Virus record (IMG/VR): IMGVR_UViG_3300029319_000006
Span: 82,763 to 146,762 of that record
Direction: 5' to 3' (one strand)
From: a virus
Length of the DNA: 64,000 nt
This document shows, piece by piece, positions 29,682 through 46,760 of the stretch; position 1 is the stretch's first letter, and each line of letters begins with the position of its first letter. A program made the position numbers and the translations under genes. The notes under the pieces were generated by a model. The model was not told the origin of the DNA. It made no database searches and saw only the letters and a list, made by a program, of their open reading frames with translations.

Positions 29682-29689
29682 TATAAATA
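29682..29689 (+). promoter_or_regulatory. T4-type late promoter TATAAATA
   Basis: Exact match, intergenic, 21 nt before the ATG at 29711 with GAGG SD. Confidence 0.65.
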
Positions 29690-29710: not shown

Positions 29711-30433
29711 ATGTTATTTAAAACTATAATGATAAGAGTAAAAAATGATATAATTTCTGAATCTTATGCTGAATATTGTAAACAATCTTGGGAGTTTGCA
29801 AATATAAGATTTTATGATGCAGTTACTCCATCTCAAGTACATTTACAAGATGGTAAATTAAAATTTGGAAGAAAAAACAATAAAGATTTAACTCCTACAG
29901 AAAAGGCATGTTTTTATAGTCAGTACAATTTATGGAAAAAGTGTGCTAAAGAAAGAATACCTATATTAGTGTTGGAACATGATGCATATTGTACTAATAG
30001 ATCTGCAATTGAATTTAATCCTAATTTAGGTGTTCAGTTTTTTGGTCAACATGCTATGGAAGCTGTAATGTATCATCCAGATTTTTGTAATATAATAGTA
30101 GAACATTGTCAAGGTGATCATTGGGTTACAGGACCAATGAAATTAGTAGATGCATTGTTAGGATATTTCAATCCTGGAGCTCAAAGTAGATATGGAATTC
30201 CTCATGCAAGATATCAAGGAAGATTGGCACCAGTTAAATCTTGTATTGATGAGAGATATGGTACAACAGTAAAACATTTTAATGGTTCTACTACAGCAGA
30301 TAGAGTAAAAGGAGCAGATAGAGAATTATTTAAAATGATTGATCTTAGACCAACTAAAAGAAAAATGGAATTACGTTTAAGAGATGCAAAATTAGTAATT
30401 CCTTCTGAGCAGGAAGTAGTAACAGAAGATTAA
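29711..30433 (+). CDS. Glycosyltransferase family 25-like
   Basis: FYDAVTP, TEKACFYSQYNLWKKC....PILVLEHDA. Confidence 0.8.
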   Translation: MLFKTIMIRVKNDIISESYAEYCKQSWEFANIRFYDAVTPSQVHLQDGKLKFGRKNNKDLTPTEKACFYSQYNLWKKCAKERIPILVLEHDAYCTNRSAIEFNPNLGVQFFGQHAMEAVMYHPDFCNIIVEHCQGDHWVTGPMKLVDALLGYFNPGAQSRYGIPHARYQGRLAPVKSCIDERYGTTVKHFNGSTTADRVKGADRELFKMIDLRPTKRKMELRLRDAKLVIPSEQEVVTED

Positions 30434-31068
30434 TAATAATATCCTATAACCATAAATCTTGTATAATTTTCCATTTTCATACTATCTTGATATAAAATAT
30501 CAGTAATATTATTTTTTAAAGCTAACTCTTCTGTAGATTCAACTAAATTAATATGTCCTTTTACCCCTTCATAATCATTTGATTGTAGTGCATATGTAGG
30601 TCCATAATCAGCAGAAATATCTTTCATGTGTTCACAGCTACAATTAATAACCAAGTCATAATTACTATGAGGTTCTGAATAATCTAATGCATCACATTGT
30701 ATACTATTATAATTTTTTTCCATATTATTAATATCAAAATACAAATCTCTTTGTTTGTGAACTATTGGATTAATATCAACAAAATCATACCAACCAACAT
30801 TACAATTGTATTTCATTAATTCATAAAGAAGAATAGAATTCCAACTTCCAAGAACTAATACATTATCCCATTTTGTTCCAAATTTAGATATTTCTTCAAC
30901 TAACCAAGATTTACATTTTATTTGATTAGGTCTAAAACTTTCTGCAAATTGTTTATCTAATTTTTTAGACATAAACATTTGAAAAGATATTTCAGTTACT
31001 TTTCCTAGTATATCAAACCCTGGATTTTGAAGCATTAAGTAAATACCGTATTGTACTGTTGAGTACAT
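30430..31068 (-). CDS. Class I SAM-dependent methyltransferase-like protein (start uncertain)
   Basis: K.WLVEE, VLVLGSW (motif I-like), [21 protein letters not shown]. Confidence 0.65.
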
Positions 31069-32204
31069 CTAATAAATGTGGTGCACTTACTCAATTGTTT
31101 TAATTTGTTAGCTCCAACATATGTACATGTAGATCTTACTCCACCAAGTATTTCTTGTATAGTAGATTCTACTCCACCTTTATATGGTACCATTACTTCT
31201 CTTCCTTCAGCAGCTCTGTAATCTTTCAATCCTCCAAAGTGTTTGTCATTTGCAGCTTGACTACTCATTCCATAAAATAGAACTTGTTTTTCAATTCTGT
31301 GAATTCTGTTTATAGAACCACCATGATGTAACATTGTTCTATGAGATCCTTCATCTAATATTTCACTAGTAATATATTCTTTTTGTACAATATTTCCACC
31401 ACCTTCATCATGTCCTGCAAGCATACCACCTAACATTACAAAATCTGCTCCTCCAGCAAATGCTTTAGCAATGTCACCTGGGCATGTACAGCCTCCATCA
31501 GCAATGATATGTCCACCAAGGCCATGAGCAGCATCAGCACACTCCATAATAGCACTAAGCTGAGGATAACCAACACCAGTTTGAATACGAGTAGTGCAAA
31601 CGCTCCCAGGACCGATCCCAACTTTAACAATATCTGCTCCACTTAAAATCAACTCCTCTGTCATTTCACCAGTTACTACATTTCCAGCAATAATAACTAT
31701 ATTAGGATAATTAAACCTAAATTTCTTTACAAAGTCAACAAATCTTTCACTATAACCATTAGCAACATCAATACAAACATATTTTAATAATCTATTACAT
31801 TGTTCATATACTTTACGAAACTTTTCATGGTCTTGGTCAGTTATTCCAATACTCATAGCAACATAATCTGCACGTAAACCAATAGGAACTTTATCAGTTC
31901 CTTCATGGTCAAAATAATCTACTAATTGTTGTACTGTATAAGTTTTTACTAAACAAGTCATAATTCTTTGTTTAGCTAATGTGTCAGCCATTGTCATAGT
32001 ACCAACACCATCCATATTACTAGCTATAATAGGAATGCCTCTATAATGTTTATCTTCTTGAAATTTAGGATGACCACTATACTCATAGTTCCGAAAAGTA
32101 AATCCACGAGAAAGTTCTATTTCTTTTCTACTTCCTAGAGTACTTCTTTTAGGACGGATTAATACATCCTTGAAGTCTAACTTCACATCTTGTTCTATTC
32201 TCAT
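31035..32204 (-). CDS. guaC: GMP reductase
   Basis: [55 protein letters not shown]. Confidence 0.95.
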
Positions 32205-32509
32205 TATACACCAAAACTCTCACCACATCCGCAACTTGCTGTTGCATTAGGATTAATCACTTTTAAATAAGATCCACCAAGTTCTTTAACATAATCAATT
32301 GTACATCCAAAAACAAACATTTCTGCCATTGGGTCTAACCACAAATTCTCTACTGTTGGTTCCTTATCTGTTATTCCCCATTCGTATTGGAAACCAGCAC
32401 AGCCTCCACCTCTAACCGAAAGTGATACATTTGGTTTTCCAACAGATTGTAAATACTCTTTTGCTGAGTCTGTCAGCTTAAGAGGTATTTTCAGGGTAGT
32501 GCCTTGCAA
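32204..32509 (-). CDS. A-type Fe-S cluster carrier (IscA/HesB family)
   Basis: [28 protein letters not shown]. Confidence 0.92.
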
Positions 32510-32805: not shown

Positions 32806-32813
32806 AGTTGTAT

Positions 32814-33110
32814 TTATACCATTCTTAATTGTTTTACTGCACCCTCAACTCTTGGTGGATATCTTCCTAAAAATGTTCCTGCTTTTAAAGCATCTCTTAC
32901 AATATGTTGTTTATGTATATGATCTATAATATCCCAATTTTCATCTATTTTTCTAGCTAATCTATCAAACAATGCATCACTTAATATTGGATTATCTTCT
33001 TCATAGTACGCATAAGCTGCCATAAGATACCATGGTATAGTCATATTAACATTATTATCAACTTTATCTAAACATTCCTTATCGTACAATTTGTTCTCCT
33101 CTTTCGGCAT
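32814..33110 (-). CDS. Stand-alone NAD-dependent ligase domain Ia-like protein
   Basis: AYAYYEEDNPILSDALFDRL matches the YY..D.P..SD..(Y/F)D.L motif of LigA domain Ia. Confidence 0.75.
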   Translation of the reverse strand: MPKEENKLYDKECLDKVDNNVNMTIPWYLMAAYAYYEEDNPILSDALFDRLARKIDENWDIIDHIHKQHIVRDALKAGTFLGRYPPRVEGAVKQLRMV

Positions 33111-33465
33111 AAAAAGCCTCCGTTAATTCTTTTTCTATTCTATACGCTTCCTGTTCAAATGGTCTTTCATAATATGGTAAATCGGTACTCATATCTACCT
33201 TTCTCAGATATTGATTCACATGAACTAATTCATGGAATAAAGTTGTAATGATTTCTAGTGGGGAGAGAGAACCGTCGAATCTGATCGTAAAATCACGATC
33301 ATCTTCATGCATGCAATCGCCATTGACTCCTTGGTTACGTATTCTAATAATATTTATAAAAATATTTTTATGTCTAGGAAATAAAGATTTACTACCAAAT
33401 AATAATACATCTGATATAAGATCTTGTAATTTTTTAGTTCTTATATTTTCAAAACTAATTAACAT
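33079..33465 (-). CDS. Zincin-like metallopeptidase
   Basis: LFHELVHVNQY (HExxH), PFEQEAY. Confidence 0.75.
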   Translation of the reverse strand: MLISFENIRTKKLQDLISDVLLFGSKSLFPRHKNIFINIIRIRNQGVNGDCMHEDDRDFTIRFDGSLSPLEIITTLFHELVHVNQYLRKVDMSTDLPYYERPFEQEAYRIEKELTEAFYAERGEQIVR

Positions 33466-33470
33466 ACTTA

Positions 33471-33508
33471 CTTATCGCATATTAAAACACAAAAGTCAAC
33501 AGTTAATT
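33471..33508 (-). promoter_or_regulatory. Early sigma70-type promoter (AATTAACTG-TTGACT-17-GATAAG)
   Basis: -35 at 33494-33499, -10 at 33471-33476; ATG follows 5 nt later. Confidence 0.8.
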
Positions 33509-34129
33509 TTTAGTTCTTATTTCTACATTTTTTCCGACAGGAAATTTTATCTGGTTATGAGGATGATATAGTATCCACTGAACATTTTGAAACTCATTGA
33601 ATATTCCTTGCCAGATTGGTCTCCATCTATCATTAAGTCTAACATTATTAGTAGCACCTCGATCAGAGTTCAATACAAAGTCTGTATAACTTCTCAGATT
33701 CATATCAAACAAACTATCGAATCCGTACATATGAATTTCATCACATTTTAATTTATTAGCTGTATAATGAGCAGCCATATGTCCACAATTAAAGTTAGTA
33801 TATCCTTGACCTACTTGTCCTTCTTCACCTGGCATTCTTGCATATGGAGGTAACACAGTATAAAATTCTTTAATTTTATGACCAAATCTCATTTTAAAAT
33901 TACCTTGATTTTGATCATACCAAACTTTAGGTCTATATCCTAGAGTCCAATCATATTGAATTTGTACACTTCCCTCAGTTAATGCATTACACATTTTAAA
34001 ATCTACTATACATGAAGTATAAAAATTTAAATGAAAAGGAGGTTGATTACACGCTATATGTAAACCTCTAGCTGGTTTATACATTGCAACTTGATCACCA
34101 TTACCAATAATATGTGCTACTTTACTCAT
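33503..34129 (-). CDS. MptE-like / sialyltransferase-fold glycosyltransferase-like protein
   Basis: AHIIGNG, IACN, VD, N.G..A, EIHMYGFD motifs. Confidence 0.6.
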   Translation of the reverse strand: MSKVAHIIGNGDQVAMYKPARGLHIACNQPPFHLNFYTSCIVDFKMCNALTEGSVQIQYDWTLGYRPKVWYDQNQGNFKMRFGHKIKEFYTVLPPYARMPGEEGQVGQGYTNFNCGHMAAHYTANKLKCDEIHMYGFDSLFDMNLRSYTDFVLNSDRGATNNVRLNDRWRPIWQGIFNEFQNVQWILYHPHNQIKFPVGKNVEIRTKN

Positions 34130-34817
34130 TATGCCAATATTCTTTTATCCATTGTTGGGGTTCATATGTAGCCATTGGTGTTACTATAGTTTCTGTCATA
34201 GCTTGTATAATACTTGGTCTGCCATGAAAACAAATTATAGACACATTCTCTTTAGGAGGTCTTGGATACACATTGTACTTATATGATTTTAATTTACCTG
34301 GATATTTGTTTTGAAGTAATGTTCTATTATAAGGATTCATTTTACTACTAAGGTATTCTCCATCACCTCTAAATCTATCAATAACATGATCATATCCTAA
34401 TACAAATTCATTCCAAAGATAATTGTTAGGATTAAAGTCCCAAGACATTACTCCTGTTTGTAACACTCCTTTTAAATGAGGTTGATGAGCATTAACTGCT
34501 CCAACATCTTCTATACCCATAAACCAACTATCATCTGTTAATAACCAATCTAGGTTTCCTGTAATCAAAGTATCTAAATCCAAATACACCATTCTTTCAG
34601 AAGTTTTTTGAGCAGGATCAAACATTTGTAATTTATTCCACCAACCTTCATATCCAGGTCTAAGAACTTTTACATCTATTCCACTTATTGCTTTATCACT
34701 ATAACATACAAAATTATGATCTATTGTAGTGTTTCGTTTGACTGCAGCTTTTAAATTATAAACATAATCAATTGGAAATTTATTTCCCCAATAAACACAT
34801 GCTACTGTTGGTTTCAT
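34122..34817 (-). CDS. GT-A glycosyltransferase (GT8-like)
   Basis: CV.WG.KF..DYV.NL, GWWNKL.MF, YLDLD, GD..Y, IICFHG.P. Confidence 0.8.
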   Translation of the reverse strand: MKPTVACVYWGNKFPIDYVYNLKAAVKRNTTIDHNFVCYSDKAISGIDVKVLRPGYEGWWNKLQMFDPAQKTSERMVYLDLDTLITGNLDWLLTDDSWFMGIEDVGAVNAHQPHLKGVLQTGVMSWDFNPNNYLWNEFVLGYDHVIDRFRGDGEYLSSKMNPYNRTLLQNKYPGKLKSYKYNVYPRPPKENVSIICFHGRPSIIQAMTETIVTPMATYEPQQWIKEYWHNE

Positions 34818-35335
34818 TTTTTATCCTCCATAATTAAAGATACAATATCAATATCAATTGGTTTAGGTCTTGTATATTTTAAATCTATTATAGTACCAGC
34901 TCCTAAAACCTTAGCTCCTGTTTGTTGTATCAAAGATTTAGTAGCCATAATACTTCCGCCTGTTGCTACTAAATCATCTATAATTATACACCTACTTGTG
35001 TGTCCTAACAACCCTTTTTGTAATGTTAATTCTGATTGACCATATTCTAAATTATATTTTTGATATAGTAACTTACCTGGATAAGCTGAGTTTGGTTTTC
35101 GGACCATTAAAAATGGAATATCTTTTATCATAGATAATGCACTACCAACAACAAAACCTCTACTTTCAATACCAACTATATGAGTTGGTCCTTTAAATTT
35201 TTTTACTTTTTTAGCTAATTGGTAAATGCTATATCTGAATGCACCACTACTAAACAAACTATTCATATCATAAAAATTTACACCTTTGACAGGATAGTTA
35301 GGTATAGTTCTAATATAATCTAATATTAGTTTCAT
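34814..35335 (-). CDS. apt: Adenine phosphoribosyltransferase
   Basis: IR.IPNYP.KGV.F.D, GIESRGF, VRK, Y.LEYG, IIIDDLVATGGS. Confidence 0.92.
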   Translation of the reverse strand: MKLILDYIRTIPNYPVKGVNFYDMNSLFSSGAFRYSIYQLAKKVKKFKGPTHIVGIESRGFVVGSALSMIKDIPFLMVRKPNSAYPGKLLYQKYNLEYGQSELTLQKGLLGHTSRCIIIDDLVATGGSIMATKSLIQQTGAKVLGAGTIIDLKYTRPKPIDIDIVSLIMEDKK

Positions 35336-35979
35336 ACTTCCTCAATAATATAATTTTCATTATACATATGTTTTGCTAGACAACCATACTGTCTTTGAAT
35401 AGTAGAAAAATTTTCTTTTACTTCTACAGGCCATGGATAATATTCTTCTAACCAAGGAAATGTTTGTAAGTTTAAAAATATATCTGTAGGAGCTCCTCTA
35501 GTAATTCCTGTTTCTACCATTATTTTAGCTGCATTAGGTTTGACTCTATATGCATGAGCACCTGGAAAATATGGTTTAGATACAAGTCTATTTCTTCCTA
35601 AAGCCATAGGAGTGTTAAATTTACCATATGATGGTTTTCCAAAAGATATACAACCATTGTGTTCAATTGAAGGGATATTTTCCATTATAACTGCATCATG
35701 TTCAAATATAGTAACTTCTTCTCCAGATTCCATACTATACATCCATAAAGATAAATGAGAACAAAAAGCTGCCATAGCATTATGTTCTCTTGAATATTGA
35801 CTATTATTAAATTGTTCTGTGTTTATTTTATGTTCAGAAATAAAATCAAAACATGTATGAGGGGTGAATGCTTGATAATAATCTATTTCCAAACCAAACT
35901 TTTTTCCAGACTCTACACATCTATCAGCAGCTTGATGAGATTTATCATTATCAATTATAGTTATAACAAAGTGTTTCAT
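35332..35979 (-). CDS. Glycosyltransferase family 25-like
   Basis: FVITI, AFTP, AAFCSHLSLW, IFEHDA, PGAHAY.V.P.AAK. Confidence 0.85.
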   Translation of the reverse strand: MKHFVITIIDNDKSHQAADRCVESGKKFGLEIDYYQAFTPHTCFDFISEHKINTEQFNNSQYSREHNAMAAFCSHLSLWMYSMESGEEVTIFEHDAVIMENIPSIEHNGCISFGKPSYGKFNTPMALGRNRLVSKPYFPGAHAYRVKPNAAKIMVETGITRGAPTDIFLNLQTFPWLEEYYPWPVEVKENFSTIQRQYGCLAKHMYNENYIIEEV

Positions 35980-35981
35980 AA

Positions 35982-37106
35982 TTATCCTTGGGTAGTAGAA
36001 GCAACTCCTTGTAATGTTGTGTAGTATGGATAAACTACTCTCATTAAATGTCCACCCATCAATTGTTTACACATAAGAGCATCATTTGGCCACAATCCAA
36101 CATCATCAATTATTTCAAATAATTTTCTAGCAGGACCTGGGTTCATTAAATATGCTGAATTACCAGCTAAACCTTGTGGTACAGATTTATCATCCACCCA
36201 AGGTACTTCTCTATAAAAATGCTTAGGTTTGTTTTCTCCTGTTACACCATTTTGTAACATATTCATAGCATTATCTAAAGAGCTATTCATATTAGGATTA
36301 AAAAGTTTCTTGTCAATTTGACTAGAAGCTATTTTTTCTCCTTGACTGTTGTGATGTACTCGTTTCATTAAATTAGCTTCTACTATTTCATCACCTACAA
36401 CACTAGGTGAAAAAGCTCCACCCCAGCCATCAGGTATGATTTTATTATCTGCTATACTATTACCAGAATTAAGAACTTTTTCATAGTATAAGTGTGCCTT
36501 TCGTGTTGCTCCTAATGGATTATTCAACCCTATAACACAATTTCTTTTTTCCCAACCAGGTGGCATTTCTTGATAATCAAATTTTCTTGTAAAAATAGCA
36601 TCATGTTCCAATACCATAATTGGTGTGTTTATCATTAAACAGAATCTCCATACATTCATATGAGATAACAAACATGCAACTACTTTTTTTTGATCTTTTG
36701 CGCCATAAGCATGAACTTTCAAACCAGATCTTAAATCTATTTTCTGTGTCCCTGGTTTTACAGGCCATGTCCAATCAGTAATTTTTTTACTAAAACTTTG
36801 TAATGCAGGTTGTAAAGTTTCAGGAGTAACAGCTGGAATAATAAAAGGAGACAACTTAGAATTAGTAGCTTGTATTGATCTAATACATTTACGAGCAGCT
36901 GCAATACTATTTGTATTGTTTATGTCTGTAATGATACCAGCACATATTTCAGATTGAATTCTTCCATCTTGTGGACTAAGTCTTTCAAATTCAGGTACTA
37001 GATTTTTTTTAAATTGTTCTACAGTTTCAGCTTTTGATAAATTCTCACTTCGTCGAATTTTATCTTCATTTTCTCTAGCTGTTGCACCTTTTGTAACATC
37101 TACCAT
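35982..37106 (-). CDS. Glycosyltransferase family 25-like, with internal insertion
   Basis: AVTP, ACLLSHM..W, VLEHDAIF, GLAGNSAY...P..A..L, WPND; cATAAATA at 37125-37132 upstream. Confidence 0.85.
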   Translation of the reverse strand: MVDVTKGATARENEDKIRRSENLSKAETVEQFKKNLVPEFERLSPQDGRIQSEICAGIITDINNTNSIAAARKCIRSIQATNSKLSPFIIPAVTPETLQPALQSFSKKITDWTWPVKPGTQKIDLRSGLKVHAYGAKDQKKVVACLLSHMNVWRFCLMINTPIMVLEHDAIFTRKFDYQEMPPGWEKRNCVIGLNNPLGATRKAHLYYEKVLNSGNSIADNKIIPDGWGGAFSPSVVGDEIVEANLMKRVHHNSQGEKIASSQIDKKLFNPNMNSSLDNAMNMLQNGVTGENKPKHFYREVPWVDDKSVPQGLAGNSAYLMNPGPARKLFEIIDDVGLWPNDALMCKQLMGGHLMRVVYPYYTTLQGVASTTQG

Positions 37107-37127
37107 AAGTTTTCCTTTTTATTGTAT

Positions 37128-37841
37128 TTATGGTTCTATTAATCCACGTTCTACAAGTTCCTCATAATTTTTCATCTTTGCTCCATATACTCCTTGTGAA
37201 TCATCATAAGGTTTTTTTCTTATGTGAATCATATAACAATTTTCTACATTAGGTAAGTAATGACTATAACACCATTTTTCATCTAAACATTTATCGTATA
37301 TACTATAACCTAAATTTCCATGTACGGCAAGCATATGCATAATACCTTCTTCAACATATGGATGTGGACTTATTTGTCTCATCATTGCTCGAGTTACTGG
37401 ATTAATTTGAGCTCTAAATGCTTGTCTTACTTCTCTTGGTAATACATAACAAGCTCCAGACCATAATTGAACATCTCGACTAGTAAAACCTGGAAACAGT
37501 TGAACAAAGGCTGGATGTTGTCTATTTTTATGAACATCATCATAACATGCAACTCCTTTAGCTTCAAATACATTTTCTGTCATCCCTTTACGAACAAACA
37601 TATCTGAGTCTAACATAACAACAGTATCATATTCATCATATTCTTCATTAAGCATAGCAAGTTTTTGACATTGCATTCGAAGATCTTCCATAAATGGTTT
37701 ACCATCTAATAGTTTATATTCCGCACCTAAACTTTTTGCATACCTTTCTATATTAGCTACACTTTTTTCTACAATCGGATGTGAATTTTGACCCAAGTAT
37801 TTTTCATGTGGTTGAAAATGTTGAAGAATAATATTTTTCAT
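37128..37841 (-). CDS. GT-A glycosyltransferase-like (paralogue family)
   Basis: IILQH, YA..LGAEY, QKL..L...YD.YD.V.MLDSD. Confidence 0.7.
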   Translation of the reverse strand: MKNIILQHFQPHEKYLGQNSHPIVEKSVANIERYAKSLGAEYKLLDGKPFMEDLRMQCQKLAMLNEEYDEYDTVVMLDSDMFVRKGMTENVFEAKGVACYDDVHKNRQHPAFVQLFPGFTSRDVQLWSGACYVLPREVRQAFRAQINPVTRAMMRQISPHPYVEEGIMHMLAVHGNLGYSIYDKCLDEKWCYSHYLPNVENCYMIHIRKKPYDDSQGVYGAKMKNYEELVERGLIEP

Positions 37842-38521: not shown

Positions 38522-39117
38522 CTTGAAAACACCATCACATATCCTCCATGTCTTGCAAGACCTGGACCTTTGCAGATTGTATCTTTTAACTTAAATCCAT
38601 ATAATTTAATTATATCTGTAATTTCTGATCCTACAGCATTTAAAGGATCTTGTTGAGTAACACCTTTCATATTCTGATAATCAGACCATTCTATAGCTAA
38701 TATACCAAACTCTGAAACTTGATTACACCATGTCTGTAACGTAAGTTTTACATCATTAGTATGATCTAATGAATTAGAATAAACAATATCATGCTGGCCA
38801 ATCCATTCATCTTTTTGTTTATTAAAATCCCAAACTTCTGTCATAGGAGCATACTTAGCTTTTTCACAAATCTCTGTACCAACAATCTCACATTCTGGTA
38901 AATAAAAATTAAAATGTCTTTGTTCTTCTCCACTTCTTGTTCCATGACATAAGACACTTGATATATTAATATTATTTTGTTTTGTATATTCAACTATTTT
39001 TTCAATAGTAGCTTGTCTAACATAAACTGTTCTATTATATTTGAAATCTGTAGTCTTTTTTTGAGAATTTATATAATCATTATAATCTTGATATTCATAA
39101 CTTTTCATAATTTCCAT
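38518..39117 (-). CDS. SAM-dependent methyltransferase-like protein
   Basis: VLCHGTR.GEE, G.EI, DF, DIVYSNSLDH. Confidence 0.7.
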   Translation of the reverse strand: MEIMKSYEYQDYNDYINSQKKTTDFKYNRTVYVRQATIEKIVEYTKQNNINISSVLCHGTRSGEEQRHFNFYLPECEIVGTEICEKAKYAPMTEVWDFNKQKDEWIGQHDIVYSNSLDHTNDVKLTLQTWCNQVSEFGILAIEWSDYQNMKGVTQQDPLNAVGSEITDIIKLYGFKLKDTICKGPGLARHGGYVMVFSR

Positions 39118-39911
39118 TCCGTTACTGGTAAGTTAACAACTCTATCAATTTTTTCAGGGTCAAACTTATTAGCTCCTGCTAATTGTACATGAACAAAATT
39201 ACTTTGATCTCTAAGATCTACTACGGGTCTTGGATCTTTTGTATCTGGTTGATAATGTACACTACTGTTCCATTTATAATCCATTGTTATCCAATTCATT
39301 TTAGCTACTTCTAACATAGCATGTAGATATGGTTGATCACAAGTATAAAATTCTGGTAATCCTGAATTTTGAATCATAGAAGTATATAATTGAAATTTTA
39401 GAAATTTATATTTTGCTTTTAACATTCCAGGTTTAGAATAAACTACAACTCCTGAATTATATACTTTAGGTAAACCAGATTTTGTTCTTGGAAGTTTCAC
39501 GTTAAAGAATGCTTCTATAATTTTTACCCATCTTTCATCATTCATATTATTAATACCAGCAATAGTATGTTTAGTTCTTACATCAGGAGCATTCCATTCT
39601 TCACATATTCCTATATCAATTGGTGTTCCTTTAAATTGATCAAATATATTTTCTGTTAATCCTATTACTGGAAATACATCAGTATCTACATATAAAACAT
39701 AATCATAATGTTCAGACATATAATCATTAAATATAGGTTTAAATGATCCATAATGAGAGGAAAAAGAACCTAAATTAGTAACAAACTTAGGATTATGTTC
39801 GTATACATATTCAGAATTTATTTCCTCAGCATAACGTCTCATACATTTTACGCTATGTTCACTTTCGCTGGTTTCTTCACCATCTCTGTATTGATATATT
39901 AATGTCCTCAT
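39105..39911 (-). CDS. GT-A glycosyltransferase-like (paralogue family)
   Basis: LIYQY, YA..I..EY, YDYVLYVDTD, YNSGVV, DQ.YL, KWN, FVH. Confidence 0.75.
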   Translation of the reverse strand: MRTLIYQYRDGEETSESEHSVKCMRRYAEEINSEYVYEHNPKFVTNLGSFSSHYGSFKPIFNDYMSEHYDYVLYVDTDVFPVIGLTENIFDQFKGTPIDIGICEEWNAPDVRTKHTIAGINNMNDERWVKIIEAFFNVKLPRTKSGLPKVYNSGVVVYSKPGMLKAKYKFLKFQLYTSMIQNSGLPEFYTCDQPYLHAMLEVAKMNWITMDYKWNSSVHYQPDTKDPRPVVDLRDQSNFVHVQLAGANKFDPEKIDRVVNLPVTEWKL

Positions 39912-40603
39912 TAGAAACCCTTGTATCTTTTTTGATAATTATGTATTTGTTGAACTATATCTTTTTTAATAAAAACTGCATCAATTTGATTCCATATTCC
40001 TTTTCTTATTGCTACATGATGTACTCCTGATGGAACAAAATCATGTTCATATAATGTTTCTATATATTGATCAAAACGTGGAGCTCCTTTGTTATACCAC
40101 ATAATAGGCATTTCAGTTATAATAGCTTTTGTATGTTTCAATGCTTCTTTGCTACCATTAAATATATCTATTTCTGATCCTTGAGTATCTATTTTTATAA
40201 AATCAGGTTGAGGTAATTTGTTTTGTTTAATTAAACTATCTAAAGTAATAGTTGTTACATCTATACTATGATTTTCTAAGTAGTTATCAGTCATTTCTTG
40301 ATATACGCTGTTACCGGTAGTTTGTTCTCTATCATTATCTGATAAGTAAAATTTTACTTCTTTATCATCTTTATCAGACAACACAGCATATATTGAATGA
40401 CTATGGTTATCATCTAATAATTTATTTCCTGCAAAAGCCTCAATCAAGTAAAACATAGTTTCTCTTGGAAATTTATGTTTCCATTTTCTGTACCATTTTC
40501 CTTCATTAGCTCCTATGTCATACACATTCTTAAATGTTATTCCAGCATCTAACAATTCTTGAAGAATAAATTCTAATGTTCTTTCTGGGGATCCTGTAAT
40601 CAT
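39911..40603 (-). CDS. FkbM-family methyltransferase
   Basis: YDIGAN.G, IE, TLD, PDFIKIDTQGSE..I..G. Confidence 0.9.
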   Translation of the reverse strand: MITGSPERTLEFILQELLDAGITFKNVYDIGANEGKWYRKWKHKFPRETMFYLIEAFAGNKLLDDNHSHSIYAVLSDKDDKEVKFYLSDNDREQTTGNSVYQEMTDNYLENHSIDVTTITLDSLIKQNKLPQPDFIKIDTQGSEIDIFNGSKEALKHTKAIITEMPIMWYNKGAPRFDQYIETLYEHDFVPSGVHHVAIRKGIWNQIDAVFIKKDIVQQIHNYQKRYKGF

Positions 40604-40604
40604 T

Positions 40605-41747
40605 TTACCACTCCGGTGATGTTAGTATATTATCAGGATCTAAATTATCTTTCATCTTTTCAGCTATAAATTTAATATCATCTATAAGAGTATTTGAAAG
40701 AGTAATTGGTTCAAAACCTAAACTACGAAGACCTTGATTATCTACTTCTAATTCATTTTCTTTTAATTCTTTTCTTGGATTAGGTACATATTGAATATTC
40801 GCACCATATTTTTCAGCACATAATTCTGCTAATTCCTTTACATTTCTTACTTCAGCAACTTGATTAAATATTCTTACTTTATTTCCTTCAGGGATACTTT
40901 CTACTGCTAATTTTATACAATTAGCTGTATCTTGAATATGAATAAAAGCTCTAGTCTGACCTCCAGTTCCATAAACTGTTATATCATTACCAGTTGCTGC
41001 CTGAGAAATAAATCTATTTAATACTGTTCCATAGATACCATCATAATCAAATCTGTTCACTAATTTTGGATCTAACATAGTTTCTTCTGTTTGAGTTCCC
41101 CAACATATACCTTGATGAAGATCAGTAATTTTGATACCCCAGTTTTTATTATAGAACTGAAATAGGATTTGGTCAAGAGATTTTGTCATATGATAAACAC
41201 TACCAGGATTAGTTGGATAAAGTACATCAACATCTTTTTGTGTTGAATTAACTTTTATATTTAAATATCCTTCTGGTATTTTACCAAAATCTTTAGAATA
41301 TCCATATACACCCATAGTACCTAAATGAACTAAATGACATTCAGGAACAATATTAACAATAGCATTTAGAATATTATGTGTAGTCGTAATATTGTTTTCA
41401 ACAGTATATCTTCTATGCATTTCAGAAAGCATTGAATATGGAGCAGATCTTTGTTCTGCAAAATGAATTATAACTTCTGGTTTCATTTTTTGAACATAAT
41501 TCGTAAATCCTAAATAATTTATAGCAACATCAATCTGTCCAAATTTTAATGGCATACCATGTCTTAAAGCTGCATCTATTCTATTCTCCATTGATTCAAT
41601 ATTAGTAAGAGAATTACTATGTGTCTCTTTATCAATTTTCCTTCTGGAAAAATTATCTAATATGTGAACATCATGTCCAGCTTTAGCTAACTTCAATGAA
41701 GTTGGCCAACCACAAAAACCATCTCCTCCTAAAACTAAAATTCTCAT
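40605..41747 (-). CDS. sqdB: UDP-sulfoquinovose synthase
   Basis: GGDGFCGWPT, DN.SRR, HFAEQRSAPYSM, HLGTMGVYGY, IPEGY, YP..PGSVYH.TK, TDLHQGI.WG, NRFDYDG.YGTVLNRF. Confidence 0.95.
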   Translation of the reverse strand: MRILVLGGDGFCGWPTSLKLAKAGHDVHILDNFSRRKIDKETHSNSLTNIESMENRIDAALRHGMPLKFGQIDVAINYLGFTNYVQKMKPEVIIHFAEQRSAPYSMLSEMHRRYTVENNITTTHNILNAIVNIVPECHLVHLGTMGVYGYSKDFGKIPEGYLNIKVNSTQKDVDVLYPTNPGSVYHMTKSLDQILFQFYNKNWGIKITDLHQGICWGTQTEETMLDPKLVNRFDYDGIYGTVLNRFISQAATGNDITVYGTGGQTRAFIHIQDTANCIKLAVESIPEGNKVRIFNQVAEVRNVKELAELCAEKYGANIQYVPNPRKELKENELEVDNQGLRSLGFEPITLSNTLIDDIKFIAEKMKDNLDPDNILTSPEW

Positions 41748-41950
41748 TTTAAATCTGTACCTTCCTCATGGCATGATAATTGAATTGAATAATATTGATT
41801 ACTTTCATGCCAAGACCAATTATCTAAATTAGCCATTGCTTCACATTGTTCTAATGGCATAGGTTGATTAAGAACATATTGATTTCCTATATAAACCCAA
41901 TCCGTTCCTGTATTTCCCCATAAAGAAAATACTAATAAATATTTTACCAT
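41744..41950 (-). CDS. Small hypothetical protein with hydrophobic N-terminus and two Cys
   Basis: Operonic 68-aa ORF overlapping both neighbours. Confidence 0.55.
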   Translation of the reverse strand: MVKYLLVFSLWGNTGTDWVYIGNQYVLNQPMPLEQCEAMANLDNWSWHESNQYYSIQLSCHEEGTDLK

Positions 41951-42906
41951 TGATTGCTCCCATAATAATTTCTATACCATTGTACAAATTCTTTTACACC
42001 TATTTCAATAGGAGTTTTAGGATTATATCCTAACTGTCTTATTTTAGTTGTATCAGACCATGTTTCTTTAGCATCTGCATCATGTTTTGGTCTCATAGTT
42101 TTTGCAGATGTCTTACCTAATTCTTTTTCGATTATTTCTATAAAATCTAATAGCTGAACTTGTCTACCATTACCTATATTATATATTTCTCTTTTACTCA
42201 TGTTATTTGATATGATGTGTATACCGTCTACTATATCATCAATATATGTAAAATCTCTTTTCATATCTCCATGATTAAATACTTCAATAGGTTTATCATT
42301 AAGTATTTTATCAGTGAATCCAAATAAAGCCATATCAGGTCTACCCCATGGTCCATAAACTGTAAAGAACCTTAGACCTATTGCATTAGGTATTTTAGAT
42401 ATATGAAACATATGTTCATTCAATTGTTTAGTATATCCATAAGGACTTAGCTGAGGTCCTAACTTATCTGATTCTTTCCAAGGTAAAGGATTACCATGCA
42501 TAACACAAGATGTTGAAGCATAAATTACATTTTCAACATCATGTTTTTCTAATACTTGTATCAAATTTAAAGTACCAGTAACATTATTATCAACATACTC
42601 TTGAGCGTTATCCATAGAATATCTGACTCCAGCCATAGCTGCTAAATGTATAACCAAATGAGGTTTTATTTTTTTAATATATTTGTCTAAACCATGTAAA
42701 TCGTATAAGTCAAGATTCTTACATTTAATTTCATATTTTTCTTTTAAATATTTGGCTCTGTCTCTTTTCAATTTAGGATCATAATACATATTAAAATTAT
42801 CAAATCCATAAACTTCATATTCACCACTTTCTTCTAAATTAATAGCTGTATGAAATCCAATGAATCCAGCCATTCCTGTTATTACTACTTTAAGAGCCAT
42901 TAACAT
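41944..42906 (-). CDS. NAD-dependent epimerase, UDP-glucuronate 4-epimerase-like
   Basis: TG.AGFIG, YYDPKLK..R, HLAA.AGVRYS, YGYTK, LRFFTVYGPWGRPDMA. Confidence 0.92.
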   Translation of the reverse strand: MLMALKVVITGMAGFIGFHTAINLEESGEYEVYGFDNFNMYYDPKLKRDRAKYLKEKYEIKCKNLDLYDLHGLDKYIKKIKPHLVIHLAAMAGVRYSMDNAQEYVDNNVTGTLNLIQVLEKHDVENVIYASTSCVMHGNPLPWKESDKLGPQLSPYGYTKQLNEHMFHISKIPNAIGLRFFTVYGPWGRPDMALFGFTDKILNDKPIEVFNHGDMKRDFTYIDDIVDGIHIISNNMSKREIYNIGNGRQVQLLDFIEIIEKELGKTSAKTMRPKHDADAKETWSDTTKIRQLGYNPKTPIEIGVKEFVQWYRNYYGSNQW

Positions 42907-43678
42907 CCTCCATTAATTGTTTAATATTTTCTCCTCTATTAGGCAATAAATCTTTCAAAAAGAAATGTACAAAATTGCATTCGTTTATTCTAGTATTAGC
43001 AGTATACAACCCATTCCATTTCCAGTCAAGGTTTTTTATTTTCATGTTTTCTTCTCTAATCCATGTATTAAGAAGTGTCTGATCTGTCGACCATTTCCAT
43101 GCTCCTTGACCATCTATAAAATCTTTAAACCTAGGTCTTCTTAAAAACTCTGTAGGTGTTTGACCTTTTAGATATGGAAGTATTGATTGGTTCATAACCA
43201 TTACACCCATATTCATAAACTCACCACCTAATTGATTCCATTTCCAATCTACAGTTTTAATATTATGATACTGCATTTGTGAATAATTAATTATTTTTGC
43301 CTTATACTGTTCTGTGATAGGCATTTCTCTTTCTACTACAGCAGCAAAATGATAATCACTAGGCACGCTATCAAAAATGGACTCACTGACAGAGCTCCGA
43401 ACAAATACATCAGCGTCAATAACACAGACACTGTCATAGGTTTCAAGATAATTGAACGAATTTTCTTTCTCATAGATTGGAAGGAAGCCACCATATTTTT
43501 CATAAGATTCATTACTCCTATTTGTTGCGAACACATCAGGTTTAATTCTAAGAATTGGTTGGCGCTGTATTGCGTAATAAGCACCTATTCTACTTGCATA
43601 TTGTTTTACTGAATCGGTACAACGATCGTATAGATTGGATCTATTTCCCGTGTACACTTGGTAGATCAATGTCTTCAT
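42890..43678 (-). CDS. GT-A glycosyltransferase-like (paralogue family)
   Basis: LIYQV, YA.RIGA, YD.V.VIDAD, N.GVMV, DQTLLN.W, KWN, FVHF. Confidence 0.75.
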   Translation of the reverse strand: MKTLIYQVYTGNRSNLYDRCTDSVKQYASRIGAYYAIQRQPILRIKPDVFATNRSNESYEKYGGFLPIYEKENSFNYLETYDSVCVIDADVFVRSSVSESIFDSVPSDYHFAAVVEREMPITEQYKAKIINYSQMQYHNIKTVDWKWNQLGGEFMNMGVMVMNQSILPYLKGQTPTEFLRRPRFKDFIDGQGAWKWSTDQTLLNTWIREENMKIKNLDWKWNGLYTANTRINECNFVHFFLKDLLPNRGENIKQLMEDVNGS

Positions 43679-44288
43679 AATCTAAGCCTATAAAATGTCT
43701 TTTTGGAGTGTAATGTTCTATGGTATTTAGTCCTTCAATATTTACTTGTTCTATAAAGTAAAAATCATTCATTTCTTTTTGTTTTTTAGTATTCATAAAA
43801 TTAGCTATATGACCATCACTATTCATTTTTATTGTTTTACATATTGCATTGGAAATTAATCTTTCAGCAAAAAGAGGAGTAATATAATATCCAGATCCTA
43901 CTGATAGATCTTTAGTACCATCTTCTCTTCTTATATAAGATAAAATTTTATATCCTTCAAACAAAATATCTTGTTCTATTGGTTTTATTAATTTTGAATC
44001 GTGTTCAATAATTATCATAGGTCTCCATTCTCTAAGACATTTGCACCACAAATCAAAATGGCTATACCACACGGCTTTTTCAGTAGCAGAAAATTCTCTA
44101 TCTTTCCTTGCTACTGTGCCTTGTTTTAAACCAAATTTTAGTTGATTTCTATAAACTAAATCTTTAGCAGTAGTTGCTTCGTGATAAAATAAATCATAAT
44201 CTCTCCAACTGTGTTTTACATGATTCACATATAATTCAGAAAGAGGATGTTCTGACATCCTTATCATAAATATTTTAAATTTTTTCAC
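43641..44288 (-). CDS. Glycosyltransferase family 25-like
   Basis: EATT, TEKAVWYSHFDLW.KC, IIEHD, GYYITP..A..L. Confidence 0.8.
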   Translation of the reverse strand: MKKFKIFMIRMSEHPLSELYVNHVKHSWRDYDLFYHEATTAKDLVYRNQLKFGLKQGTVARKDREFSATEKAVWYSHFDLWCKCLREWRPMIIIEHDSKLIKPIEQDILFEGYKILSYIRREDGTKDLSVGSGYYITPLFAERLISNAICKTIKMNSDGHIANFMNTKKQKEMNDFYFIEQVNIEGLNTIEHYTPKRHFIGLDYEDIDLPSVHGK

Positions 44289-44974
44289 TACATCCCATGA
44301 ACATTTATTGGAAATGCATATCTTGCCATATTCATTTCTGATCCAAACTTAACAGTATTTAAAAAATCACCATGATTTTCTTCTGCTATCCATCTTTTCC
44401 ATGATCTCGATAAAAACTCATCAAGAGGAATATCGATACCAATTGGTGAATTTTTATACAAATTAGATTTACATATTTGATTAACTAAAGACCAAGCCAT
44501 TTTAGGTGTAATAAAAGTCCCAAAAGAAAATAAAGCCTTGTTGGTCACAGAACCTTTAGCTAAAGGCCAAAATTTAAAGTATCTTGTATCCATGAATATT
44601 TTATCATCAATAAAATCTAAACTACCATATACAAAGGGATCAGATAAAAAATTTCTATGAAGTTTAGCCCCCTGTTGAGTTATTATTACAGCATCATCTT
44701 CAAGCCTTCTTATTTTTCTTAAAATGTTAACATAAGAAAACCATTCTGATATTTTTTGTTTACCCAACATTTTAAATAAAGGAATTTGGTAATCATATCC
44801 ACCTTGATCTAATTTAGATATCCAAGCATATTCTTGTACAATACAATTTGTAAATCCTGATGCATAAAAGGAATTTTTTGTTAAATCAATAGCTCTTTGA
44901 CCTTCAAATGTATAGGGGTCTCCAATAATATATACTTTAATATCTGGATCTAAAAAATGGCTTTTGTAGGTCAT
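44288..44974 (-). CDS. Divergent GT25-like protein
   Basis: VYII, WFSY..IL, FITPKMA..L, D.FL; the EHD motif is replaced. Confidence 0.45.
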   Translation of the reverse strand: MTYKSHFLDPDIKVYIIGDPYTFEGQRAIDLTKNSFYASGFTNCIVQEYAWISKLDQGGYDYQIPLFKMLGKQKISEWFSYVNILRKIRRLEDDAVIITQQGAKLHRNFLSDPFVYGSLDFIDDKIFMDTRYFKFWPLAKGSVTNKALFSFGTFITPKMAWSLVNQICKSNLYKNSPIGIDIPLDEFLSRSWKRWIAEENHGDFLNTVKFGSEMNMARYAFPINVHGM

Positions 44975-45930
44975 CTGTAATCTTCTAAACTAAATTTTGT
45001 TCCATACATCTTATAGTTTTTACGATCGTGATTAGTATACACTAAAACTTCAGGGTCATCAACTAAAAAATCACAAGTTTTACAAAAGTCTGGATAATCA
45101 CCATCTCTATGTTGTTGTCTAAGTTTATTGTATTTATCTCCATTCCATATGTCAACTATTTTATTTTCACTACCATGTCCTAAAACAGCTTCATCATCTC
45201 TTCCAAGCACTTGACAACAAGGGTGAACAGCTCCAGTTTTACCATCAAGACCACCACTGCGAATAACAATATCAGGCGAAAAAGGTCGTCCACAAGTTTT
45301 TTTATTTCCTTTTCTTTCGTATTCTGGTTCATAAACACCACTCCAGTTATGCATTTTCCATATTTCTGTTGAAACTCTTGCAGAATCAACAATTTTTAAA
45401 TACTGTTGTATTTCATATTCTATTTGATTATTATCTAAAATTAAATGATAAGTTGCTACTTTACATGTCGATCTAGTTTTGACAACATATCTTTTCATTT
45501 CATGTAAATTACTTATAACTCTATAAAAATGTTTACTATTCATCCATTGATTGTAAGTATCAAAGTTATATCCAATTATACTAAATCTAAAAAAATCTAA
45601 CCCAGCATCAACACATTCATTCATAAAGTTTCCAAACATTCTCATTCCATTAGAAAATATTACTGCTTGTGCGTTATATTTTTTTACTATGGAAATATAA
45701 TTTGGTAAATTTTTAAGTACTGTAGCTTCTCCAGAACCGTCTAAATTAACTACATTCAATCCAGCTTCTGCACATTGAGCTACATAATTTTCAAATTCAG
45801 ACAAAGGCATACGACCAGTCCAAGCCTTACCTCTAGCTCCTGTTTTACCTTCTGGAGTAGTTTGAGGACACATTTTACAAGTATAATTGCATCCTCCATT
45901 TACTTCTATAACTGCTCTATCTATATACAT
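44971..45930 (-). CDS. Radical SAM protein with SPASM/twitch domain
   Basis: CNYTCKMC (CxxxCxxC), GSGE, SNG, C-terminal C.RPF...PCC...IW......LR..H...CKTC. Confidence 0.92.
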   Translation of the reverse strand: MYIDRAVIEVNGGCNYTCKMCPQTTPEGKTGARGKAWTGRMPLSEFENYVAQCAEAGLNVVNLDGSGEATVLKNLPNYISIVKKYNAQAVIFSNGMRMFGNFMNECVDAGLDFFRFSIIGYNFDTYNQWMNSKHFYRVISNLHEMKRYVVKTRSTCKVATYHLILDNNQIEYEIQQYLKIVDSARVSTEIWKMHNWSGVYEPEYERKGNKKTCGRPFSPDIVIRSGGLDGKTGAVHPCCQVLGRDDEAVLGHGSENKIVDIWNGDKYNKLRQQHRDGDYPDFCKTCDFLVDDPEVLVYTNHDRKNYKMYGTKFSLEDYR

Positions 45931-46760
45931 TAATATCCATTTATTAACTTGAAAAATAACATTTTATAATTATTAGCTTTTTCTGTAGCTGATTCAATAA
46001 AGTAAGTTATCTTTTTTAAATTAGTATCAATAAAAAATTTTTCTCCTCTTATTATATGAGCGGCTGGTGTATGCCAAACAGATAAATTACTATTTGTAAT
46101 AACAATATGAGGTTTAAAAAAATTCTTAGAAATATAATGCCACATACCTTCATAGGAAATGCAGCAATCACAAGTTCTAATGTGATAATAAGCCTCTCTT
46201 ATAGGAGTTCTATAATCAATCTCTACAACATCATAACCAAAGTCTTTTAATAAATTTATTAATCTTTCCCATTCCCATTCAAGTAAAGGAAATTTAAAAC
46301 TTTTTACTTGTTGTTCTGCATTGAATGTAGGCCTCCACAACACTATCTTATTATCTATAGGAGTTGTGTCTATAGATTGATCAAAAGCCCAATACTTATA
46401 AAAAGATGAATTTCTTTCCCAAGGTTTTTTTACACCAGTATACTTTTTTCTGTATAATAAAAAATCCTGAGAATTAAATACATGTGTTACATTTACAATG
46501 TCTTTCCACATGTATCTATCCAATACAAATTTTGCCCTTTCATCTACTGATTCAGGATCTTCAAAATGGTAATAATAATTTTTGGGGAAGTGATAATGTA
46601 GTTCTAAGTTAACTGGTTTTTGATTTATAAATGCTCTAATGTATGCACTATTGAATGCATACATGCTATCGCCAATACCAACAGTGGTTTTCCATTTAAT
46701 ATCGCTAACACCATAATTATCTTTCCAGTTTGAGACAATTATTTGCCACAGATTTTTCAT
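45930..46760 (-). CDS. GT-B (GT9-like) glycosyltransferase-like protein
   Basis: GIGD near the N-terminus; W..LI..L...G..VVEI...I..C...ISYEG..HY. Confidence 0.55.
   Translation of the reverse strand: MKNLWQIIVSNWKDNYGVSDIKWKTTVGIGDSMYAFNSAYIRAFINQKPVNLELHYHFPKNYYYHFEDPESVDERAKFVLDRYMWKDIVNVTHVFNSQDFLLYRKKYTGVKKPWERNSSFYKYWAFDQSIDTTPIDNKIVLWRPTFNAEQQVKSFKFPLLEWEWERLINLLKDFGYDVVEIDYRTPIREAYYHIRTCDCCISYEGMWHYISKNFFKPHIVITNSNLSVWHTPAAHIIRGEKFFIDTNLKKITYFIESATEKANNYKMLFFKLINGY

Follow-up and report, generated by a model that had tools for sequence, protein, structure and literature searches.

Islands rich in glycosyltransferase (GT) genes are already known from pelagimyophage-like phages, and viral self-glycosylation is known from giant viruses and mycobacteriophages. 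The GT-rich gene sets of pelagimyophages have been called 'LPS-like' (lipopolysaccharide-like) and were read as modifying the O-chain of the host (Zaragoza-Solas et al. 2020, PMC7029224). The subject here is one such island in a marine phage, found in a stretch of 64,000 nucleotides (positions 82,763 to 146,762 of IMG/VR virus record IMGVR_UViG_3300029319_000006), which is called the window below and supplies all coordinates unless genome positions are stated. An original prediction had placed at 29711-46760 a self-contained cluster of donor-synthesis enzymes, about 12 transferases and tailoring enzymes, and had proposed virion proteins as the simplest acceptor. Glycan gene content in fact spans 29.7-47.6 kb, and very probably the module assembles a charged sugar chain within infected cells. 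That this conserved module acts on the phage's own virion proteins, namely the tail fibres and the outer baseplate, is the reading preferred here, and it is held tentatively. New features are a defined conserved core around a glycan-type SqdB (UDP-sulfoquinovose synthase) of a phage clade, GT8-like and MptE-like families confined to phages, a putative late promoter at the head of the island, and the separability of the island from the DNA-modification cassette of a relative.

The window covers the final 64 kb of a 146,762-bp IMG/VR phage contig with ~31% G+C, and the phage belongs to an uncultured clade of marine T4-like (Kyanoviridae-like) phages. T4-type RNase H, SegE, gp32, UvsX, gp9/10-like and gp5-like proteins are encoded, and the baseplate wedge is 38% identical to that of Phage C48C1 and ~35% identical to those of Pelagibacter phage HTVC008M, Mosig and Methylophilales phage Melnitz, all Kyanoviridae. 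Completeness of the contig is 84% by CheckV; little of the genome is missing, however, since both contig ends abut on the map of G002, a complete 152.7-kb island-bearing relative used for synteny. Like the pelagimyophages, this phage is a marine T4-like virus of the wider group with many GTs, GT8 prominent among them, with Ugd- and RfaE-type donor genes and with plastic regions. Unlike them, it has no CsgG, the curli gene typical of pelagimyophages, anywhere in its genome, and tblastn finds no counterpart of its SqdB, GT8-like and GT25-like core genes in GenBank phages. Neither a conserved core around a phage-clade SqdB nor a late-promoter head is described for the pelagimyophages in PMC7029224. 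A megablast of the 17-kb island against GenBank phages likewise gave no match. C48C1 is the only GenBank phage with an MptE-like gene (42% identity), which sits in an equivalent plastic region near gp32 with a much smaller glycan set.

The glycogene systems of giant viruses (PBCV-1 A064R and the mimivirus clusters; PMC9614988) resemble the island in combining sugar-nucleotide enzymes, soluble GT-A transferases and sugar methyltransferases, in forming clade-specific clusters and in working in the cytoplasm without a carrier, and some mimivirus clusters also hold sulfate-metabolism genes (PMC9614988). They differ in their eukaryotic hosts and in their chemically solved capsid or fibril glycans, whereas the phage glycan is predicted from genes and the host is a bacterium; sequence identity between the two is only 11-14%. 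Cluster F1 mycobacteriophages reportedly use phage GTs to modify capsid and tail proteins of their own within the cytoplasm (Freeman et al. 2023, cited in PMC11256854). They have one or two GTs, placed within the structural operon, and make no donors, whereas the present island carries ~12 GTs plus donor genes and lies outside the structural operons. The outer-core loci for lipooligosaccharide (LOS) of Haemophilus, Neisseria and Campylobacter share its families, namely GT8 (LgtC), GT25 (Lic2A/LpsA), GT9 (WaaC/F) and GT42 (Cst-I/II), and likewise use soluble or peripheral enzymes for stepwise, carrier-free extension. However, these are cellular genes acting on lipid A-core, whereas the phage families have no detected cellular members, and the phage has no Kdo or lipid A genes.

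The open reading frames (ORFs) from 47572 down to 30430 form a single, tightly packed array on the minus strand, with many overlaps, and the sole plus-strand gene of the region is 29711-30433. The island lies in a hyperplastic region between RNase H and gp32. The predicted number of transferases stands: there are five GT25-like proteins, five GT-A proteins with a DxD motif, one GT9-like protein and one protein with an MptE/Maf/sialyltransferase fold. Two of the GT25-like proteins exceed the PF01755 gathering cut-off of 24 bits, the 240-aa product of 29711..30433 (+; 35.5 bits) and a 374-aa protein with a GT25-like domain at 35982..37106 (-; 39.1 bits). Two more fall just under it, a 215-aa core enzyme at 35332..35979 (-; 21.9 bits; 20 related loci) and a variable-shell enzyme at 43641..44288 (-; 23.8 bits), and the fifth, at 44288..44974 (-), is recognised by language-model and fold likeness only (ESM Atlas 0.96, TM-score 0.63). 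The plus-strand gene is a paralogue of 43641-44288 (blastp, 34% identity), and no full-length orthologue of it was found in 40 related loci.

For the DxD GT-A proteins, four paralogues had been counted besides a separate GT8-like ORF. The paralogous group is borne out, but the GT8-like ORF is no separate class, because it is itself one of the four. The mutual paralogues, all in the core, are 37128..37841 (-), for which the ratio of nonsynonymous to synonymous substitution (dN/dS) is 0.07; 37838..38521 (-); 39105..39911 (-; 268 aa; blastp 9e-13 to 42890; 33 loci); and the GT8-like 42890..43678 (-). The fifth GT-A protein, of 231 aa, belongs to the variable shell and is encoded at 34122..34817 (-; phrog_1962, 1.3e-19; DLD motif). 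With PF01501 (GT8; gathering cut-off 24.3 bits), 42890 scores 23.5 bits and its paralogues give no match. Its AlphaFold2 model (pLDDT, or predicted local distance difference test, 90.4) has a retaining GT-A fold with a DxD motif, in which D88 and D90 are invariant, and Foldseek matches it at probability 1.00 to UGGT, XXYLT1, LgtC, WbbM and glycogenin, which have GT8/GT24/GT34 folds. The capsid-glycan transferase A64R of PBCV-1 is also among the top matches. This gene adjoins sqdB in 35/40 loci, and its product is a candidate sulfoquinovosyltransferase.

The GT9-like protein (heptosyltransferase fold; 276 aa; 45930..46760, -) is identified only by its Atlas likeness to GT9 clusters (score 0.93, TM-score 0.61), and no Pfam (PF01075), NCBIfam or PDB-sequence match was obtained; a TibC-type protein-heptosyltransferase cluster is a weak neighbour in the Atlas. 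The 208-aa core protein at 33503..34129 (-) was modelled by AlphaFold2 at pLDDT 80. Its best fold match is the flagellin O-glycosyltransferase Maf (5mu5, Z 10.9, 163 aligned residues), followed by Cst-I (2p56, Z 9.8) and the pyrophosphokinase MptE (8sd5, Z 8.9), and a Foldseek search with the model returned weak sialyltransferase matches only (E ~3e-3). There is no Pfam or PDB-profile match to the family, which by sequence falls outside Maf, MptE (DUF115) and GT42. On this basis, the protein may be a transferase or a pyrophosphokinase. An NCBIfam search of ten GT ORFs returned nothing.

The central donor enzyme, SqdB, is encoded in the core at 40605..41747 (-), and the predicted identification is upheld: by sequence it is an intact SQD1/SqdB-type UDP-sulfoquinovose synthase (E 1.9e-85 to SQD1, 1qrr) with the catalytic residues kept. 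Residues 2-380 align with 3-382 of Arabidopsis SQD1 (1qrr), and its LGTMG and YHMTK motifs, invariant in 11 sequences, align with LGTMG and YHLSK. The catalytic residues of SQD1 are reportedly a Thr and a Tyr-His-x-x-Lys, with the His beside the Tyr typical of this enzyme (Mulichak et al. 1999). The score to the NCBIfam equivalog model NF041015 is 351.1 bits, under the cut-off of 575, yet this is still by far the top family (the next scores 56.6 bits). In a tree of 115 sequences, the phage SqdBs and five marine bacterial copies form a single clade (99% SH-aLRT) and stand apart from 80 others, the Rhizobiaceae and Rhodovulum copies among them. The cellular relatives of the phage copy, at 61-64% identity, sit in telling surroundings. 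For instance, sqdB of Neptuniibacter is flanked by GT4, GT2, an epimerase, a Bac_transf initiating transferase and Polysacc_synt_2; that of Paramylibacter ulvae adjoins two Stf0 sulfotransferases and a GT4-GT2 giant; that of a Rhodobacteraceae metagenome-assembled genome (MAG) adjoins a group-4-capsule gene; and Luminiphilus has two phage-clade SqdB copies. The phage island differs from the Neptuniibacter locus in that Pfam and hydropathy show no initiating phosphoglycosyltransferase in it. Because its clade holds copies from surface-polysaccharide loci, the phage SqdB is placed on a 'glycan-type' branch rather than with sulfolipid synthesis, and the bacterial members, in their polysaccharide and sulfotransferase loci, hint at sulfoquinovose-containing surface glycans in bacteria. 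Archaeal Agl3 (PMC4388408) is similar in that it, too, has a glycoconjugate rather than a lipid as its context. The phage copy differs from SQD1, SqdB and Agl3 in scoring under the NF041015 cut-off and in its separate, phage-dominated clade. A viral sqdB was noted once earlier, in a Mu-like virus (PMC7785012).

The same comparison bears on a sulfolipid role, in which SqdB, the adjacent GT8-like protein (as a SqdD) and a short-chain dehydrogenase/reductase (SDR; as a SqdC) would make phosphorus-sparing sulfoquinovosyl diacylglycerol or sulfoquinovosyl-glycerol. Since SqdD is glycogenin-like and encoded in sqdB-sqdD-sqdC operons of Rhodobacter/Sinorhizobium type (bioRxiv 10.1101/2022.08.18.504050), a sqdB beside a GT8-like gene could mimic sqdBD. 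Rhizobium grahamii, the one locus checked, does have an sqdB-sqdD-sqdC operon with a GT8 SqdD and an SDR SqdC, and the phage order of GT8-like gene, SDR and sqdB looks alike. However, the phage GTs show no tblastn likeness (E<=0.01) to the GTs flanking 80 bacterial sqdB genes, sqdBDC operons included, and the phage SqdB clade is separate from the sqdBDC type. In addition, the SDR is epimerase-like and missing from most relatives, no SqdA-like acyltransferase was seen, and ten other GTs would be left without explanation. A sulfolipid role is thus very improbable.

The predicted UDP-uronate epimerase corresponds to the extended SDR at 41944..42906 (-; PF01370, 163.7 bits), which is UDP-glucuronate 4-epimerase-like and matches 5u4q (3e-72), the UGA epimerase of B. 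cereus (6zl6, 3e-45) and MoeE5. A sulfotransferase foreseen near 63.1 kb (Sulfotransfer_2; 63104..63664, -) was confirmed with PF03567 at 29.8 bits against a cut-off of 22, and lies 16 kb from the island. The radical S-adenosylmethionine (SAM) enzyme was likewise confirmed as a variable-shell radical SAM/SPASM protein (44971..45930, -; PF04055 and PF13186; dN/dS 0.09). Only one of the three methyltransferases stands, the FkbM-family enzyme at 39911..40603 (-; PF05050, 60.7 bits; TIGR01444, 66.7 bits). The other two show methyltransferase-like motifs by eye only: the 212-aa product of 30430..31068 (-), with class-I motifs, has no match in Pfam, PHROG, NCBIfam or PDB, and the 199-aa product of 38518..39117 (-) has none in Pfam, PHROG or PDB.

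Outside the window, at genome 25,218-26,592 beside UvsX, there is a gene of the UDP-glucose/GDP-mannose dehydrogenase family (Ugd-like, 310 aa) and, in the same stretch, a cytidylyltransferase-like gene (150 aa, RfaE/TagD/PPAT type). Both are likely further sugar-donor genes, and they lie ~90 kb from the island, exactly at the spot where G002 carries a hydroxymethylase cassette. A second GT9-like gene, also outside the window at genome ~30,909-31,740 and absent from G002, is a paralogue of 45930-46760 (25% identity over 129 aa), and an exact copy of the T4-type late-promoter motif, TATAAATA, stands 5 nt ahead of its start.

The genome encodes no PAPS (3'-phosphoadenosine 5'-phosphosulfate) reductase/CysD-family protein, no APS (adenosine 5'-phosphosulfate) kinase and no CMP-sugar synthetase, so the host must supply SqdB with sulfite, the sulfotransferase with PAPS and the MptE-like enzyme with any CMP-sugar, and UDP-glucose must likewise come from the host. 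With these outside supplies, donor genes ~90 kb away, and genes for GMP reductase, adenine phosphoribosyltransferase (APRT), a HesB-like protein and further non-glycan functions interspersed, the cluster is not self-contained as had been supposed. SAR11 reportedly lacks assimilatory sulfate reduction (Tripp et al. 2008); if SAR11 were the host, the source of sulfite would need explaining. The nearest cellular GMP reductases are on odd MAG contigs (58-60% identity) and next in many single-amplified genomes of Pelagibacteraceae (53-56%), a signal that hints, weakly, at a SAR11 host.

At the gene level, the evidence supports the prediction of a cytoplasmic pathway that is soluble, works without a carrier, includes at least one methylation step and draws on anionic donors, these being UDP-sulfoquinovose, probably UDP-galacturonate and perhaps sulfate esters. 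No initiating phosphoglycosyltransferase, flippase, polymerase or ligase was found by Pfam on the island ORFs and hydropathy genome-wide; no Wzx-, Wzy- or WaaL-like protein appears in the genome by Pfam or hydropathy, and by hydropathy no island ORF has a segment of transmembrane (TM) type. The maximum in any protein of the genome is four such segments. The only membrane-type proteins are encoded outside the window at genome 1,500-15,200, a stretch that holds a series of small proteins with hydrophobic segments at the N-terminus besides the 319-aa protein with four TM-like segments. Nor does the genome show a GtrABC- or Oac-type membrane flippase, bactoprenol GT, polytopic GT or acetyltransferase. 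Carrier-dependent polysaccharide synthesis and Gtr-type conversion are therefore not favoured, as hydropathy shows no membrane proteins of such kind.

The proposed order of events, in which we infer the donors, the sequence of steps and above all the acceptor from gene content, folds and conservation, would run as follows. SqdB would make UDP-sulfoquinovose out of host UDP-glucose and host sulfite, and the distant Ugd-like enzyme together with the 41944 epimerase would probably yield UDP-galacturonate. The ~12 soluble GTs (GT8-, GT25-, GT9- and MptE/Maf-like) would then add single sugars in the cytoplasm, straight onto the final acceptor, no lipid carrier being involved. FkbM would methylate the glycan, which the radical-SAM enzyme and the sulfotransferase may tailor further, and T4-type late promoters would drive at least part of the island.

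SqdB is carried by 40 IMG/VR contigs at 58-77% identity, and around it a core can be told from a shell. In these 40 loci, the GT8-like 42890 occurs in 35, 39105 in 33, 37128 in 24, 37838 in 20, the GT25-like 35332 in 20, the MptE-like 33503 in 19, its neighbour 33079 in 18, the 82-aa ORF at the island head in 20 and FkbM in 14. The shell, consisting of the GT9-like gene, the radical SAM gene, two GT25-like genes and the epimerase, is found in 2-5/40 loci, and GMP reductase and APRT are similarly restricted to few. Unnamed metagenome homologues number 2130 for the GT8-like family and 1567 for the MptE-like family. Against the nearest relative, dN/dS ranges over the island from 0.07 to 0.49 and is lowest for 33503 and 37128 (0.07 each), 33503-34129 being the most constrained island gene. 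Near-identical contigs that span the whole island recur in seawater metagenomes of at least four studies from 2014 to 2025. Decay of the genes, raised earlier as a possibility, is thus not seen, given purifying selection, a widely conserved core and recurrence in seawater. In the contig layout, joints whose sides were 20-35 letters long at 90% likeness were discounted as noise from paralogues or other organisms.

Both the GT8-like core family and the MptE-like family were found on phage-like contigs only, with no cellular relatives at the sensitivity used. A GT8-like profile matched only 13 contigs among GTDB genomes, scattered over unrelated MAG labels, and these look like mis-binned phage because one of them, JAHEGS010000004.1, bears a whole syntenic island. 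Island-bearing phage contigs appear in MAGs labelled Bacteroidota, Verrucomicrobiota, Actinomycetota and Rhodobacteraceae, among other groups; since these filings are probably binning errors, the labels are unsafe for host calls.

The acceptor is addressed first by the timing of expression. Of the late-type motifs originally pointed out, at 29682, 37125 and 46836, two are exact copies of TATAAATA. One is intergenic, at 29682..29689 (+), 21 nt ahead of the ATG of the GT25-like gene, and the other lies at 46836..46843 (-) within the conserved 82-aa ORF at the island head (46717..46965, -; orthologues in 20 loci). The third, at 37125..37132 (-), reads CATAAATA; it is a 7/8 match that overlaps the stop of 37128-37841, and it is not conserved in relatives. 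The exact octamer is present in 9/16 distinct orthologues of the head ORF, against 0.41 expected, and at two codon positions: as F-I-N in one subclade and, 24-30 nt earlier, as D/S-I-N in another that includes G002. A working late promoter ahead of the island is argued because the octamer is kept at two positions. With 12 copies in the window against 17.7 in shuffles, its overall count is not above chance, so the motif is meaningful only by position and conservation. Genome-wide, 17/31 copies fall in the ~6% of the DNA that is non-coding, mostly 5-36 nt ahead of an ATG, and one precedes the gp9/10-like baseplate gene. Most plus-strand copies in G002 are at most ~70 nt upstream of a called gene, several of these being large fibre-like or baseplate-homologue genes. 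In its placement the motif behaves as a real late promoter. A scan for sigma-70 promoters and terminators gave chance level only.

A second line of evidence comes from Asp-Ser (DS) dipeptides. Fibre-like proteins of this genome have 27 against 10.3 expected (z 5.2) and 14 against 5.0 (z 4.0), and a fibre-like protein of G002 has 33 against 10.1 (z 7.2). C48C1, with the MptE-like gene only, has one DS-enriched protein (z 3.2), and HTVC008M, without that gene, has no protein at z >=3. The late motif, the Maf fold and the DS excess thus lend some support to the predicted virion acceptor, whereas the argument from the missing membrane GTs, on which the prediction also leaned, does not discriminate. 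The A64R match of the GT8-like core, the weak TibC-type neighbour of the GT9-like protein, the restriction of the core families to phages and a set size like that of giant-virus glycogene clusters point the same way as the virion reading. Taken further, these data would allow a late-phase cytoplasmic O-glycan line in which the MptE/Maf-like protein or the TibC-like GT9-like protein would initiate on the Ser of Asp-Ser-(Ala/Asp) motifs of the tail fibres and the outer baseplate, GT8- and GT25-like enzymes would add sulfoquinovose and uronate, and methylation would follow; this specific scheme is possible, if rather doubtful.

Several observations weigh against a virion acceptor. The late motif is absent from 6/16 head-ORF orthologues, core genes in relatives have no late motif of their own, and coding constraint may contribute to retention of the motif in lineages that are not independent. 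The island lies inside a long co-directional array that starts at the replication genes, outside the structural operons, and because the array runs on from these upstream genes, early or middle read-through into the island is possible. The DS comparison covers five genomes and is a clade-level correlation; the link is consistent but weak, because it reflects one or two evolutionary events, and Melnitz, without the island, has one small DS-enriched case (z 4.3).

The same side of the balance leads to the host envelope. On the cytoplasmic side of the inner membrane, soluble GTs may extend the host lipid A-core (LOS) or some other glycolipid of the envelope, with export by host MsbA, and the altered glycotype would block superinfection or stop progeny from sticking to debris. 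The set of GT8, GT25, GT9 and Cst-type enzymes is precisely that of LOS outer-core loci, and the fold matches include LgtC, WbbM and Cst-I. LOS-type enzymes of the GT8, GT25 and GT9 families are likewise soluble or peripheral and depend on nothing more than host MsbA, with no carrier or flippase of their own required for such extension, which is why a missing flippase, polymerase, ligase or membrane GT is non-discriminating. The genome also has RfaE/TagD-type cytidylyltransferase-like and Ugd-like genes, as in pelagimyophages, the island stands among replication and nucleotide genes, and published readings of such genes in related phages favour a change of the host surface (PMC7029224, PMC12379486). 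However, the GT8-like core and MptE-like genes have their relatives on phage-like contigs alone, the promoters at the head of the island are of late type, whereas early expression would be expected for exclusion, and a core conserved over a wide clade would fit a conserved phage acceptor better than diverse host cores. To our knowledge, twelve GTs plus donor genes also far exceed phage surface-conversion modules of Gtr/Oac type. Action on the host envelope is therefore a possibility of doubtful standing, and virion proteins remain the preferred acceptor.

The split between core and shell, with the shell in only 2-5/40 loci, raises the further possibility that glycan genes have accumulated in a hyperplastic region and that core and shell serve different targets, for instance virion proteins and the host surface. 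Unrelated salvage genes are interspersed, one GT gene is on the opposite strand under its own promoter, more GT9-like and donor genes occur elsewhere in the genome, and the gene content of the plastic region differs in G002 and C48C1. However, the genes overlap tightly and run in one direction, a single late motif lies ahead of both shell and core, and donor genes are interleaved with transferases. Several acceptors are thus unlikely.

DNA was a further acceptor to be considered, since the transferases could in principle glycosylate hydroxymethyl- or hydroxy-pyrimidines of the phage genome. The original prediction had ranked this low and had reported no hydroxymethyl-pyrimidine synthase in the window, rightly on both counts: PF00303 is absent from the whole genome, which encodes ThyX and no ThyA homologue. 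Hydroxymethyl- and 5-hydroxy-cytosine routes both need a ThyA homologue (PMC13326640), so DNA glycosylation is unlikely on this ground. Poly-glycosylated cytosines do occur in other T4-like phages (PMC13326640), and G002, besides ThyX, encodes a T4 gp42-like dCMP hydroxymethylase (E 3e-70 to 1b49). The latter is part of a 7.4-kb cassette (33408-40774 of G002; 12 ORFs, including the gp42-like ORF at 34937-35614 and four 313-389-aa proteins of unknown kind) that is missing at the syntenic spot here, where the flanking genes are only ~1.7 kb apart, and four other island-bearing contigs, all incomplete, show no hydroxymethylase. The island thus occurs with and without the cassette. The DNA GTs known to us, moreover, belong to other families, and DNA as the acceptor is highly unlikely. 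As a separate point, some members of the clade probably have DNA based on hydroxymethylcytosine and others do not.

The remaining genes of the region are of mixed character. GMP reductase (31035..32204, -; NF003470, 522.8 bits), shared with the nearest relative only, and APRT (34814..35335, -; NF002636, 148 bits) serve purine salvage, and in a phage of 31% G+C both are compatible with a purine pool shifted towards A. A HesB/IscA-like iron-sulphur assembly protein (32204..32509, -; PF01521, 40.5 bits) could serve the radical-SAM enzyme. The 128-aa HExxH protein at 33079..33465 (-), with weak DUF3920/DUF6782 likeness, is kept directly beside the MptE-like gene in 18 related loci, whereas no orthologue was found for the 68-aa ORF at 41744..41950 (-). 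At the other edge, a 2-oxoglutarate (2OG)-Fe(II) oxygenase (46970..47572, -; phrog_81, 6e-21) co-occurs with the variable shell. A second such oxygenase is encoded at 26324-26890, ~2.8 kb ahead of the left end of the glycan region, and both are possible protein or sugar hydroxylases. Collagen-type hydroxylysine glycosylation, which would pair GT25 with a 2OG oxygenase, was considered and rejected, there being no G-x-y repeats in this genome or in G002. Further along, a small ORF with two CxxC pairs (zinc-ribbon-like) at 51076-51213 (-) occupies what looks like a 138-nt gap between the class II ribonucleotide reductase gene and, downstream of it, 50290-51075. None of the ORFs in a cassette of five genes amid the fibre genes shows a Pfam domain at E<=0.01, and there are no tRNAs in the window.

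If the glycan is on the virion, abundant ocean phages would wear a charged sugar coat of their own making, which could set adsorption, host range, particle stickiness and decay, and host recognition would not be predictable by tail-fibre sequence alone. The Asp-Ser O-glycan line, if it holds, would bring two firsts: a sulfoquinovose glycoprotein from outside Archaea, and a complex glycan that a tailed phage of Gram-negative hosts both makes and carries. If the glycan is instead on the host envelope, the island would be a very large module for superinfection exclusion or glycotype switching. The interest lies mainly in the virion-glycan reading, which can be tested directly in E. coli: the core families, with more than 1,500 unnamed metagenome homologues each, can be tested there, and the uncultured host is not necessary. 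With either acceptor, the cycling of marine organosulfur in the form of sulfoquinovose gains a viral term through a phage clade of UDP-sulfoquinovose synthases.

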